A stretch of DNA of 64,000 nucleotides, taken from Escherichia coli. Lineage in GTDB: Bacteria; Pseudomonadota; Gammaproteobacteria; Enterobacterales; Enterobacteriaceae. Positions 1-49,515 of the stretch are shown here, in pieces. Position 1 is the first letter of the stretch. Each line of letters starts with the position of its first letter. The translations under genes and the position numbers were made by a program. The notes under the pieces are model-generated. The model had not been told where the DNA came from. It searched no databases and saw only the letters and a list, made by a program, of their open reading frames with translations. The stretch is taken from assembly GCF_048403405.1 (NCBI RefSeq), contig NZ_CP183129.1; one strand, 5' to 3'.

Positions 1-595
1 GGCACTGGTTGCAGTGGCGTGCCATACGCTGGCCGATTTTGTCGGCTTCCTGATTCTTGGCGGGTTGTCGATCATTGCCGCTATCACCTACACCGTGGGC
101 AATCGTCCTTATGGTTATATCGGTCTGGGTGATATTTCCGTACTGGTTTTCTTTGGCTGGTTGAGCGTCATGGGGAGCTGGTATTTACAGGCTCATACAT
201 TGATTCCGGCACTGATCCTTCCGGCGACCGCATGCGGCCTGTTGGCAACGGCAGTACTGAACATTAATAACCTGCGTGATATCAATAGCGACCGCGAAAA
301 TGGCAAAAACACGCTGGTGGTGCGCTTAGGTGAAGTGAACGCGCGTCGTTATCATGCCTGCCTGCTGATGGGCTCTCTGGTGTGCCTGGCGCTGTTTAAT
401 CTCTTTTCGCTGCATAGCCTGTGGGGCTGGCTGTTCCTGCTGGCGGCACCATTACTGGTGAAGCAAGCCCGTTATGTGATGCGGGAAATGGACCCGGTGG
501 CGATGCGACCGATGCTGGAACGCACTGTCAAGGGAGCGTTACTGACTAACCTGCTGTTTGTTTTAGGGATATTCCTAAGCCAGTGGGCAGCATAA
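1..595 (+). CDS. menA: 1,4-dihydroxy-2-naphthoate octaprenyltransferase MenA, C-terminal part (5' end lies outside window)
   Basis: Open frame runs from window start; hydrophobic UbiA-type membrane protein ending LSQWAA; conserved position upstream of rraA. Confidence 0.85.
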   Translation, partial: ALVAVACHTLADFVGFLILGGLSIIAAITYTVGNRPYGYIGLGDISVLVFFGWLSVMGSWYLQAHTLIPALILPATACGLLATAVLNINNLRDINSDRENGKNTLVVRLGEVNARRYHACLLMGSLVCLALFNLFSLHSLWGWLFLLAAPLLVKQARYVMREMDPVAMRPMLERTVKGALLTNLLFVLGIFLSQWAA

Positions 596-687
596 CTGAC
601 AAATATCAATTAACAATTGATGATTTTGCCAACAGCCTACATAGCGCGATATACTGAAAATTCTCGCAGCAACTGAATGTTAAGCCT

Positions 688-1173
688 ATGAAATACGATA
701 CTTCCGAGCTTTGTGACATCTATCAAGAAGATGTTAACGTCGTGGAACCGCTGTTCTCCAACTTTGGCGGACGGGCGTCGTTTGGCGGACAAATAATCAC
801 GGTAAAATGTTTCGAGGACAACGGGTTGCTGTACGATCTGCTCGAACAGAATGGCCGTGGTCGTGTTCTTGTCGTCGATGGCGGTGGTTCTGTTCGTCGC
901 GCACTGGTCGATGCTGAACTGGCGCGTCTGGCAGTACAAAATGAATGGGAAGGTCTGGTCATTTACGGCGCGGTGCGTCAGGTAGATGACCTGGAAGAGT
1001 TGGATATCGGCATCCAGGCGATGGCGGCAATTCCGGTTGGTGCCGCTGGCGAAGGCATTGGCGAAAGCGATGTCCGCGTCAATTTTGGCGGTGTCACCTT
1101 CTTCTCCGGCGACCATCTTTATGCCGACAATACCGGGATTATTCTTTCTGAAGATCCGTTGGATATTGAATGA
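688..1173 (+). CDS. rraA: RNase E regulator RraA (161 aa)
   Basis: Full-length translation matches RraA/MenG family, ATG start, synteny menA-rraA-zapB. Confidence 0.95.
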
Positions 1174-1176
1174 TAG

Positions 1177-1203
1177 AAAAGGCACCGCAAGGTGCCTTTT
1201 TTC
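1177..1203. terminator. Bidirectional rho-independent terminator shared by convergent rraA and zapB
   Basis: GGCACC-GCAA-GGTGCC stem flanked by an A-run upstream and T-run downstream. Confidence 0.7.
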
Positions 1204-1257
1204 TGCGTTACCTGTTGGCCTACACAGTAAAGAAATTACGCGAAAGATGAAGCGTAA

Positions 1258-1551
<294 letters not shown>

Positions 1552-1784
1552 TTACCGGTGACGCCTTAATAAATACGAGCGCACTTTAGTTAGCTCCGAT
1601 TGTATGAAGCCGCGCCATCGCTGTCCAGCGGCACGCCTTGCAGATTACGGTTTGCCACACTTTTCATCCTTCTCCTGGAGACATAATCCACACCAATCGA
1701 AAATGTTAATAAATTTGTTGCGTGAATGATCTAACAAACATGCATCATGTACAATCAGATGGAATAAATGGCGCGATAACGCTC

Positions 1785-1855
1785 ATTTTATGACGAAGCA
1801 CACACATTTTAAGTTCGATATTTCTCGTTTTTGCTCGTTAACGATAAGTTTACAG
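1785..1855 (+). promoter_or_regulatory. glpFKX promoter region with candidate CRP site (TGACGAAGCACACACA) and tandem GlpR-operator-like repeats (TTCGATATTTCTCG / TGCTCGTTAACGATAAG)
   Basis: Position upstream of glpF; half-site patterns resemble CRP and GlpR operators; coordinates approximate. Confidence 0.45.
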
Positions 1856-1927
1856 CATGCCTACAAGCATCGTGGAGGTCCGTGACTTTCACGCATACAA
1901 CAAACATTAACTCTTCAGGATCCGATT

Positions 1928-4304
<2,377 letters not shown>

Positions 4305-7051: not shown

Positions 7052-7262
7052 AGGGCACCTCTGTATATTCGCCTCTCTGTCGATTACGACTTAAGAATAA
7101 TGCGCCGTTAAGGGAAGAACAAACAAGTAATGATCTTATGGATTACCATTTTTTTTGATATTGCTTAAGGTGAAGAGTTCAGAAGGATTTTCCGGGCATT
7201 GTCATTTGCATCGTGGAAATAACAATCCCGGAAAAAAATAGCAGTAAGAGATATATTAAAGG

Positions 7263-17494: not shown

Positions 17495-18439
17495 TTATTT
17501 CACCGTACCTAAAATTTCGATTTTCGCTGCTCTGGCTTTGACTTTACGTGACCAGATAGAGGTAAGAATTGGCACCAGAATCGAAGTCACAATGACCGCC
17601 GTCGCGACCAGCGAAGTTGCTGCCGGAGCCATCGGTTTAAACGCAGGCACCATTTCTGCAATCAGCACAGGTGTCGCTACCGCGGCCCCTGCGGAACTGG
17701 AAGCGGCAATTCCGGCAGTGCCATCGCCACCGCCAATCAATTTATCGGCGATAATCAACGGAATACCGGTCACGATAATTACTGCCACACCCAACAGGAT
17801 CCCCAGCAAACCTGTCTGGGCAATTACAGTCAAATCAATGGTATTGCCCAGCGCGAAGGCAAAGAATGGAATCAGCGTCTGCACCGCTTTGCTGAAAAAT
17901 TCTCGTAATTCAGGGTCAAGGTTCCCAAGGGCAAAGCCCACCAGGAACGGTAATACTGCGCCGACGAAAACATGCGGTTCAAACGAGGCAATCCCGGCAG
18001 TGCCCAGAATAATCATCGTCATGAGCGGCCCGGACTCCAATGACATCAACACAAATGCCCCAGCTTCTTCTTTTGTGCCGTACTGCTGCATGATGGAAGC
18101 GTAAAGTCCGCCGTTGGTCATATCCATCGCCGCCACCAGCGCCAGCGTTGAAAGTCCGGCAAAGAATCCAACTTCAACACCATGTTCCGGAATAATGCGC
18201 GAGGCAATTGCCGCAACCACCCACGCGACGGCAATTTTTGTTACCACCAGCGTACCGGATTTACGCAATACCGTTCCCGTCGCGCTTAATTGTATTGACG
18301 CCCCCATGCAAAAAAACCACACCGCCAGAATGGGCACCGTACCGGTAATCATCCCGTTGGTGAATGATCCAAAATATTTCCCCGCCTCCGGCGAGAAGGT
18401 GTGGCACAGTGCGCCAAGGAATAGCGGGACGAGCATCAT
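17495..18439 (-). CDS. kdgT: 2-keto-3-deoxygluconate permease KdgT, in-frame portion only (314 aa; the 13-codon N-terminal extension seen in K-12 is out of frame here)
   Basis: Translation [29 protein letters not shown]...; upstream codons for [13 protein letters not shown] are in the -1 frame and hit a stop. Confidence 0.85.
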
Positions 18440-18596
18440 CCCCCCGGGATTTTCTCAATCGAGCGTTTTATCTGCATTTCCATCACCTGTCGGCATATTT
18501 TTAAGGGCTGATGCGTAATTCCTCAATGGAGCATCAGTGTTGATGGAAACGAAGATAGACATTCATTTAATCAATAAAAGTGATCAAAACCACATC

Positions 18597-18654: not shown

Positions 18655-19366
18655 AATAAATATCCTCCGGCATAGCCGGAGGTTTTTCAAATGCGCCTAT
18701 AAGGCTCTCTTACCAGCCGCGCCCTAACAGGCGCACACGATCTGACATTTGCATCCAACTTCGTTACTTACGGCCCGTAAACGGGCTGCCCGGATAGGGA
18801 ATCGATAACTGCTCTCCCATTTTATCCTCTTCAAGCTGGTGCTTTATGTAATCCTGTATCTTCGCCGTGTTCTTACCCACCGTATCGACGTAGTACCCTC
18901 TGCACCAGAACTCCCTGTTCCTGTATTTGAATTTCAAATCACCAAACTGCTCGTAAAGCATCAGACTGCTTTTCCCTTTCAGATATCCCATAAAGCCGGA
19001 TACGCTCATTTTGGGCGGGATCTCCACAAGCATATGGATATGATCTGCACAGCATTCAGCTTCCAGAATCCGTACACTTTTCCACTCACACAGCTTTCTC
19101 AAAATACTGCCTATTGCTCTACGCTTCTCTCTGTAGAACACCTGTCTTCGGTATTTTGGCGCAAAAACTATGTGATATTTACAGTTCCATCGGGTGTGCG
19201 CTAAGCTCTTTTCGTTCCCCATTGGGACCCCCTTTTGATTTCTTGTTTGACACTTGCAGTTGCCAGACCGCAAGGTGTTTTAACAAATCAAAAGGGGTTT
19301 TAATAACTGGCTTAAAGCTGAAAGCTTTCCGGAACCCCCAGCCTAGCTGGGGGTTTTCTGTGCACA
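18655..19366 (-). mobile_element. IS200 insertion sequence (about 0.71 kb, IS200/IS605 family); ends approximate (about +/-15 bp)
   Basis: Contains 152-aa Y1 (HUH) transposase ORF, left-end palindrome AACCCCCAGCCTAGCTGGGGGTT (19333-19355) and a right-end stem-loop CTCCGGC-ata-GCCGGAG (about 18663-18690). Confidence 0.8.
18764..19222 (-). CDS. tnpA: IS200 transposase TnpA (Y1/HUH type, 152 aa)
   Basis: Translation MGNEKSLAHTRWNCKYHIVFAPKYRRQVFY...HIHMLVEIPPK...YIKHQ; HxH motif and catalytic Tyr region; SD AAGGGGG upstream of ATG. Confidence 0.92.
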   Translation of the reverse strand: MGNEKSLAHTRWNCKYHIVFAPKYRRQVFYREKRRAIGSILRKLCEWKSVRILEAECCADHIHMLVEIPPKMSVSGFMGYLKGKSSLMLYEQFGDLKFKYRNREFWCRGYYVDTVGKNTAKIQDYIKHQLEEDKMGEQLSIPYPGSPFTGRK

Positions 19367-19368
19367 AC

Positions 19369-19394
19369 AAAAAAACCACCGCCGTTGGCGATGG
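19369..19394 (-). terminator. Rho-independent terminator of sodA
   Basis: On minus strand CCATCGCC-aac-GGCGGTGG stem followed by T7 run; lies just before the IS200 left end. Confidence 0.65.
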
Positions 19395-19451
19395 TTCATT
19401 TTTTAAGCTGATATGCGGCGTAAACGCCTCATTGCAGCAGGCGGCAAATGA

Positions 19452-48618: not shown

Positions 48619-49515
48619 TTATACAAAAAGTGACAAAAAAGATCGGGTTTGATCACAGTCAGGGATCCCGGCTCGTCCACCGGGACGCGTGCATTTTAAC
48701 GCCGCCACACCGCTGGCGAAGCGAACTGACTCCGCTAAATTCCCACCGGTTGCCAATGCCACCGCCAGCGCACCGTGAAAAACATCGCCCGCACCGGTGG
48801 TATCTACCACATCAACTTTGAAAGCCGGTTGATGTTGACGCCCGCCATTTTCCAGCCAGTCGCAGCCGGCACTCCCCTGGGTCACATAGACATGACCATT
48901 TGTGAGCGTTTGTGCCTGTTTTAGCGCACTGGCCATCTCTTTCACGCCCGTTAAGCGCGCCAGACCCGGTTCTGAAAAGGCCGCGTGATCGCTTAATGCC
49001 ACCAGCTCGCTGATATCCTGCGGCGTAATGTCCCCGTCCAGAACGGTCATCACGCCCGCCTGCCGGGCCAGGGTAAAGGCTTTTTTAGCGCCGTCGTGCC
49101 AGCGCACATCTGCCAGCACAACGTCCCACTGAGAGAAATCAATTTTCTCCAACCACTCTGCGTCAGGCAGCAGATCCGGGCTGGGGTAGTTAATGATTAT
49201 CCGCTCGCCTTTGGCATCCACCATGATGGCGGATTGCGAAGATTTCGCCTGGTTATACCGTTTGGTGTAACGGGTGTTAACGCCCCAGGATTCCAGCTCT
49301 GCCAGCAGGCTGTTGCCCGTGTCGTCATCACCGACGCGACCAATAAAATCGACCTGCGCCCCCAGCCTTGCCGCCGCAACCGCTGCCGTCGCCGCTGGCC
49401 CGCCACCAACTTCCGTATAATTTCTCGCCACGTATTTACCGCTCTCCGTCGGTAATCCTTCCACGTAATAAATACGATCCATCACGGTAATACCTACACA
49501 AGCAACACGAATCAT
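48619..49515 (-). CDS. yihV: 6-deoxy-6-sulfofructose kinase YihV (PfkB family, 298 aa)
   Basis: Ribokinase/PfkB family (GAGDVFHGAL motif); synteny. Confidence 0.93.
   Translation of the reverse strand: MIRVACVGITVMDRIYYVEGLPTESGKYVARNYTEVGGGPAATAAVAAARLGAQVDFIGRVGDDDTGNSLLAELESWGVNTRYTKRYNQAKSSQSAIMVDAKGERIIINYPSPDLLPDAEWLEKIDFSQWDVVLADVRWHDGAKKAFTLARQAGVMTVLDGDITPQDISELVALSDHAAFSEPGLARLTGVKEMASALKQAQTLTNGHVYVTQGSAGCDWLENGGRQHQPAFKVDVVDTTGAGDVFHGALAVALATGGNLAESVRFASGVAALKCTRPGGRAGIPDCDQTRSFLSLFV

Follow-up and report, generated by a model that had tools for sequence, protein, structure and literature searches.

In the 64,000-nucleotide stretch of the Escherichia coli chromosome analyzed here (hereafter the window), the gene for the 2-keto-3-deoxygluconate permease KdgT lacks one base in a homopolymer of guanines near its 5' end, and we consider it likely that this base was lost in the consensus sequence rather than in the organism, that is, that a run of seven G (G7) was called as six (G6). 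Among the evidence for this reading are the G7 tract of all four nearest relatives, the frequency with which a long G run in a tRNA-Leu gene is shortened by one base in complete E. coli genomes, and the scarcity of the G6 form on contigs of short-read scale. A real deletion is the alternative that has to be weighed most carefully.

The kdgT Gene of the Window

The window extends from menA through kdgT to typA, and kdgT lies between sodA and yiiM in a position orthologous to that in K-12; in K-12-type strains and others the gene measures 984 nt and is annotated as a 2-keto-3-deoxygluconate transporter. A preliminary description of the sequence had read an ATG that opens a stretch of 13 codons closed by a TGA in a frame other than that of the main ORF, with the two frames joined by six C on the plus strand (six G on the coding strand) and the main ORF opening at ATGATG and giving 314 aa. 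Each of these elements is present on the minus strand where it had been placed (Table 1), and the run counts exactly six. The description also gave a length of 327 aa for K-12 KdgT, which is correct, and proposed an alignment to K-12 kdgT, in which the K-12 run proves to have seven G and not six.

Read in frame, the tract encodes part of Pro11-Gly12-Gly13 (CCG GGG GGG, codons 11–13). The window has no uninterrupted kdgT frame: the break follows Gly13, the TGA overlaps the downstream ATG as ATGA, and the 314-aa ORF, which is identical to residues 14–327 of the relatives' KdgT (WP_001166047.1), is left without the conserved N-terminal segment ..IK.[TS][IL][ED][KR]IPGGMM... Insertion of a single G restores, as had been anticipated, a 327-aa product with the same sequence as KdgT in the nearest relatives, and this product matches Pfam PF03812 over the whole model (E = 4e-115; residues 3–312, model positions 1–305 of 305). 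A search by sequence found no solved structure for the KdgT family. The inferred N-terminal truncation stands, and the 13 lost residues sit inside the conserved KdgT domain, which argues that the truncation is probably not a harmless shortening of the protein; on the domain match we predict that the G6 form would have lost KdgT function or have it strongly reduced. RefSeq labels the same G6 allele as a "frameshifted" kdgT pseudogene in other genomes, and the kdgT of the window would be annotated in the same way.

Table 1. Coordinates of kdgT, of neighboring elements, and of the sites used for comparison (positions of the window unless another sequence is named).
Feature	Position	Strand	Remarks
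kdgT locus	17495..18477	-	983 nt, against 984 nt in relatives
Homopolymer tract	18440..18445	-	G6 on coding strand, C6 on plus strand; G7 in K-12 and the four nearest relatives
Native kdgT start and 12 codons	18436..18477	-	ATG 18477-18475; G6 frame ends at TGA 18438-18436
kdgT body, 314-aa ORF	17495..18439	-	Opens at ATGATG 18439-18434
Palindrome AAAACAGTGTTTCAAT	18613-18598	-	Between IS200C and kdgT start
Terminator-like hairpin	18664-18682		At IS200C end, facing kdgT
IS200C	~18656-19366		Between sodA terminator and kdgT
tnpA	18764-19222	-	
sodA terminator	19373-19397		
A8 run at glpK start	2803-2810		Control 1
T8 run	7149-7156		Between yiiS and yiiR
Private substitution	11376		A in window, C in relatives; REP-like element between sbp and pfkA
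YiiG-family pseudogene	~34176-34818		Frameshifted and truncated in relatives' annotation
Transposase beside truncated hypothetical gene	~42586-44400		In relatives' annotation
Private substitution in fabY	45235	-	Codon 175: GTG (Val) in window, ATG (Met) in all four relatives
TUM1226 substitution cluster	48868-48931		Five substitutions within 64 bp
G8 run in tRNA-Leu gene	5160786-5160793 of MS 69-1 (CP146675.1)		Control 2; ~92 kb past window end

Nearest Relatives and the Upstream Region

An IS200C element between sodA and kdgT is common to the window and four complete genomes, those of MS 69-1, 4621, TUM1226, and isolate 68. Aligned over the full 64 kb, these genomes are 99.988–99.994% identical to the window, and all four have G7 and a kdgT intact at 984 nt. 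Only three differences from the four relatives are private to the window: a substitution in a REP-like element, a non-synonymous substitution in fabY, and the missing base of kdgT. The two forms of the REP-like element, TTATCAGGCCTAC and TTATCCGGCCTAC, both look to us like ordinary REP variants. The window's FabY protein with Val175 has no exact match in a collection of 15 billion proteins. A change in kdgT that is private to the window lies at the very tip of the tree, a position compatible with a recent mutation and with an error alike; taken together, the G7 tract of all four relatives and the small number of private differences favor an under-call.

Other differences and lesions in the alignment concern the relatives. 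Of the four relatives, only MS 69-1 departs from the window at the run between yiiS and yiiR, with T7 in place of T8. A cluster of five substitutions sets TUM1226 apart from the window and the remaining relatives and probably reflects a short tract of recombination or gene conversion. The YiiG-family pseudogene and the transposase with its adjoining truncated gene are common to all four relatives and are thus older lesions of the lineage.

IS200C lies 184 nt upstream of the kdgT start, an insertion site that it also occupies in two other backgrounds. A terminator-like hairpin at its end faces kdgT. Between the element and the kdgT start lies the palindrome AAAACAGTGTTTCAAT, by its resemblance a candidate KdgR operator; if it is one, the regulatory region of kdgT would be intact downstream of IS200C. 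The IS200C sequence matches 13–20 places in the genome of each relative, and the fact that the window continues unbroken through such a multi-copy element suggests that it stems from a long-read assembly.

Tract Length in Complete E. coli Genomes

We counted tract lengths by exact 69–73-nt context in 5,424 complete RefSeq E. coli genomes. G7 is by far the most frequent form (4,655 genomes, ~86%, K-12 included), followed by G6 (168 genomes, 3.1%) and G8 (154 genomes, 2.8%), with G9 in five genomes and G5 in four; the remaining genomes have substitutions in the flanks of the exact context. The haplotype of the window in combination with G6 has no match among the complete RefSeq genomes, and its 314-aa product has no record in the protein look-up. 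A programmed ribosomal frameshift was considered and rejected, given that the normal state is in frame in 4,655 of the 5,424 genomes and that the orthologues are in frame too. The "frameshifted" kdgT pseudogenes of strain 97-3250 (C7A06_RS31380) and strain A1.S1.126 (V8958_RS06400) share with the window the gene, the tract, the G6 length, and an identical surrounding sequence, but they belong to other backgrounds and lack the upstream IS200C. What is seen in the window is thus an ordinary homopolymer frameshift, and other genomes with the identical allele already have their kdgT annotated as a pseudogene. Two further observations were made among these records: CP178311.1 has a 314-aa ORF without the usual upstream sequence, and the kdgT region is present in two records labeled as plasmids.

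Controls for Homopolymer Error

The tract of kdgT is the sole G/C run in the 64-kb window that reaches seven or more (as G7 in the relatives). All 26 A/T runs of at least seven, as well as both other G/C 6-mers, agree between the window and the relatives. We had thought to judge the quality of the assembly from the rest of the window, and this proved uninformative: with no second long G/C run, a clean sequence elsewhere is no argument against an error that is specific to such runs. The absence of any other indel relative to the relatives does indicate that the assembly is not generally poor, and to that extent counts against an under-call.

Two runs served as controls. The first is the A8 run at the glpK start, with 5,150 exact matches and 26 non-exact ones, so that at most 0.5% of complete genomes vary. 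An artefact in kdgT would therefore have to be specific to G/C runs, which also counts against an under-call. We had taken the near-invariance of this run as a sign that the kdgT variants are real; for the −1 direction that reading was overturned by the second control. No G/C run of seven or more in an essential gene was found in 50 kb around rpoBC, and a scan of a further 150 kb for such runs returned only a G8 run in a tRNA-Leu gene. In ~5,425 complete genomes this run is G8 in 5,123, G7 in 200 (3.7%), and G9 in 18 (0.33%). Laboratory strains are among those called G7 (DH5alpha, K-12 DHB4, and B C3029), and these calls look like a systematic database artefact that hits a structural RNA gene.

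The rate of one-base loss in kdgT (3.1%, 168 genomes) is close to that in the tRNA-Leu gene (3.7%, 200 genomes), and the two sets of genomes overlap strongly. With 60 genomes listed for kdgT G6 and 60 for the tRNA-Leu loss, 15 appear in both lists; chance would give ~0.7, or ~2 on the assumption that the lists were drawn from one and the same third of the database. The same accession batches dominate both, and CP027xxx accounts for 17 of the 60 genomes in either list. The loss of one base at long G/C runs is thus a systematic calling artefact in ~3–4% of public "complete" E. coli genomes. The tRNA-Leu control and the overlap of the lists argue that it explains most of the kdgT G6 calls in complete genomes, and many of the "frameshifted" kdgT G6 records are likely to be artefacts of this kind. 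Residual homopolymer indels that give frameshifted gene calls are documented in long-read-only assemblies (PMC9262707). The kdgT case resembles such under-calls in the loss of a single base at a G/C run of at least seven and in the resulting frameshifted gene call; the batch clustering and the co-occurring loss at the tRNA G8 run were seen in the public collection.

We therefore posit that the sequencing or assembly consensus of the window under-called the G/C homopolymer of kdgT by one base. The organism would in this case carry G7 and an intact 327-aa KdgT, and the window would come from an error-prone assembly of the kind just described. In weighing this explanation we assumed that ~1/10 of such assemblies are error-prone, that an error-prone assembly has a chance of ~1/4 of under-calling the run, and that real G6 is present in <1%, all of which are estimates derived from the counts given here and not measurements. 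The preliminary description had offered a homopolymer sequencing error and a real slipped-strand variant as the two possible causes. That was the right pair, and we judge the error to be the probable one and the variant a credible but rather unlikely one.

A Possible Real G6 Allele

The second explanation is that the strain of the window has undergone a recent slipped-strand deletion from G7 to G6 and has lost KdgT or makes it at a low level. We hold this to be tentative but well worth setting out: the G6 form also occurs on 50–250 kb draft contigs of independent NCBI assemblies and on one Logan contig that shares the protein haplotype of the window. These occurrences speak against an under-call and leave room for a real allele. 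The tract is moreover unstable in nature, with G8 recurrent and G9 in five mouse isolates; the two private SNPs mark the window as a distinct isolate that has had time to mutate; and kdgT is dispensable and repressed by KdgR (PMC6892915, PMC4784465), the repression suggesting that loss of the gene is probably cheap.

Against this stands the frequency of the allele. The frequency of G6 on drafts was taken from an exact-protein look-up, in which the counts are approximate, index blocks not being genomes and genes flagged as pseudogenes having no protein. On contigs of 50–200 kb, the 314-aa form is recorded in 134 blocks against 15,602 for the full-length form in the K-12 haplotype and in 26 against 8,298 in the E31/K63 haplotype. 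Of 16 inspected loci with a 314-aa product, draft assemblies among them, 15 are G6 and one is G8. Counts of a 313-aa product were discarded as a proxy for the frameshift; they probably mix in choices of start site made in the annotation of genomes that may be intact. The frequency of real G6 is thus roughly 0.3–0.9%, several-fold below that of artefactual G6 in contiguous assemblies of long-read type, and this rarity on contigs of short-read scale favors an under-call in the window. The four nearest relatives, all G7, likewise disfavor a real deletion. In the protein haplotype of the window, 952 index blocks hold the full-length form against two with the frameshifted one; the two frameshifted contigs are one G6 and one G8, and neither has IS200C.

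If the deletion is nevertheless real, translation from the native ATG would stop after 13 codons, and uptake of external 2-keto-3-deoxygluconate would be expected to be reduced. Termination and reinitiation at the ATGA overlap could yield a low level of the 314-aa protein, and an occasional −1 slip of the ribosome on G_GGG_GGA, ahead of the stop codon, might recreate the wild-type sequence. In that case the tract would have two null alleles that recur in nature, of which the window has one, G6.

The G8 Allele

The other of these alleles behaves differently from the one-base loss. G8 in kdgT (2.8%) is eight times as frequent as the +1 artefact at the tRNA-Leu control (0.33%), and the listed G8 genomes are hardly clustered by batch and hardly overlap with the list of −1 artefacts, CP027103 alone being common to both. 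In the G8 allele a TTG start puts a 321-aa ORF (MRKSRGG-MMLVP...) in frame. This ORF is on record in 401 blocks, of which 279 have contigs of 50–200 kb, 112 contigs of 20–50 kb, and seven contigs of >1 Mb, and G8 was found in all ten of the examples inspected, in several backgrounds. Among drafts of the K-12 haplotype the share of G8 is ~2% (279/15,602 and 112/5,580 blocks). Five mouse isolates that stem from several deposits have G9 (RSHH22, DEF10, DEF2, FEA3, and SK6988), and the mouse strain M8 has G8. G8 thus looks like a real, recurrent polymorphism, and the kdgT tract is prone to slippage in nature, chiefly by expansion.

Comparison with Known Homopolymer Switches

A broader claim would be that the G7 of kdgT is a natural hotspot of reversible slipped-strand inactivation under selection, with G8 (~2–3%) and G6 (<1%) as recurrent alleles and the window as a real G6 "off" variant. 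We regard this combination as improbable. There is a precedent in the seven-G tract of Mycobacterium tuberculosis glpK, where a one-base expansion is a common and reversible loss-of-function allele linked to drug tolerance (PMC6667613, 10.1101/717272, PMC10334774). Both are seven-G homopolymers in the coding sequence of genes for carbon uptake or catabolism, and in kdgT, too, the +1 form is the commoner real variant. In M. tuberculosis, however, the expansion is reversible, whereas kdgT is known here by its allele counts, and the window has −1 and not +1.

That the run is a selected contingency switch, by which E. coli would turn KdgT on and off at high frequency, with the window caught in the off phase, we consider very improbable. 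Alleles of −1 and +1 do occur in natural isolates on several backgrounds, with G9 and G5 as rare additions; the tract lies at the 5' end of the gene (codons 11–13), as in classical contingency loci; and the seven-G tract of M. tuberculosis glpK acts as such a switch (PMC6667613, 10.1101/717272). Like the contingency loci of Neisseria, Haemophilus, Campylobacter, and Bordetella, kdgT has a homopolymer early in its coding sequence and length variants that are out of frame, but its tract is short and not conserved outside E. coli, and the off alleles are rare, summing to a few percent. Seven G is a short run for an organism with working mismatch repair, which E. coli has and M. tuberculosis lacks. 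A survey of homopolymer tracts in Bordetella lists a gene annotated as kdgT with an A/T tract (PMC1891110); our literature search for frameshift, pseudogene, or homopolymer in connection with the tract of E. coli kdgT found no report.

Conservation of the Start Region

We searched bacterial genomes, one for each species, with a degenerate pattern for the motif I-P-G-G-M-M-x-V-P that left the residues upstream of this peptide free, and obtained at least 120 loci, from Firmicutes to Proteobacteria. In the 118 KdgT loci compared among the matches listed, position −7 is Ile in 112 and position −6 is Lys in 112, position −1 is Arg or Lys in 116, and a Met stands at −9 or −11 in 106; none of the 118 has a stop codon in the nine codons upstream. 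The upstream codons vary synonymously among orthologues. This conservation, together with a Pfam model that aligns from residue 3, argues that the 13 codons before ATGATG are translated and selectively constrained; initiation at Met14 would leave the protein without a conserved N-terminal segment that carries positive charge.

The run itself has no such history. G7 is found at this site in none of the 120 KdgT loci from other species among the matches listed, a set outside which E. albertii and E. fergusonii lie; the run measures three or less in 107, five in ten, and six in three. The closest orthologues among these matches (93–96% identical, from Citrobacter and relatives) use CCT GGC GGG or CCA GGC GGT for Pro-Gly-Gly. 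Judged from these comparisons, the G7 run is specific to E. coli and would be an accident of synonymous codon choice in that lineage, and the lack of conservation across species argues against a switch that has been maintained for long.

To the last alternative, in which translation truly starts at ATGATG (Met14), the G run is 5' untranslated sequence, the 314-aa protein is normal, and the length of the tract is irrelevant, we give next to no credence: some entries do annotate a 313-aa KdgT (e.g., ABF05617.1), and base-pairing of the G run with the anti-Shine-Dalgarno sequence is favorable (about −9 kcal/mol), but only 0–2 nt separate the run from the internal AUGs, which is too little for normal initiation, the Pfam alignment begins well before Met14, RefSeq handles G6 alleles as frameshifted, and the conservation of the upstream peptide in the 118 listed loci, on which we reject this start, extends from Firmicutes to Proteobacteria.

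Implications

For the strain of the window, little is at stake: the missing base is either a correctable consensus error, as we think probable, or a further allele by which a dispensable and normally repressed transporter loses its function. Pseudogene calls at long G/C runs should not be read as biology without support from reads. Only two points seem to us worth keeping, the tRNA-Leu artefact and the recurrent G8 polymorphism of kdgT, the latter of which makes the tract a candidate site in E. coli for on/off control by a homopolymer.
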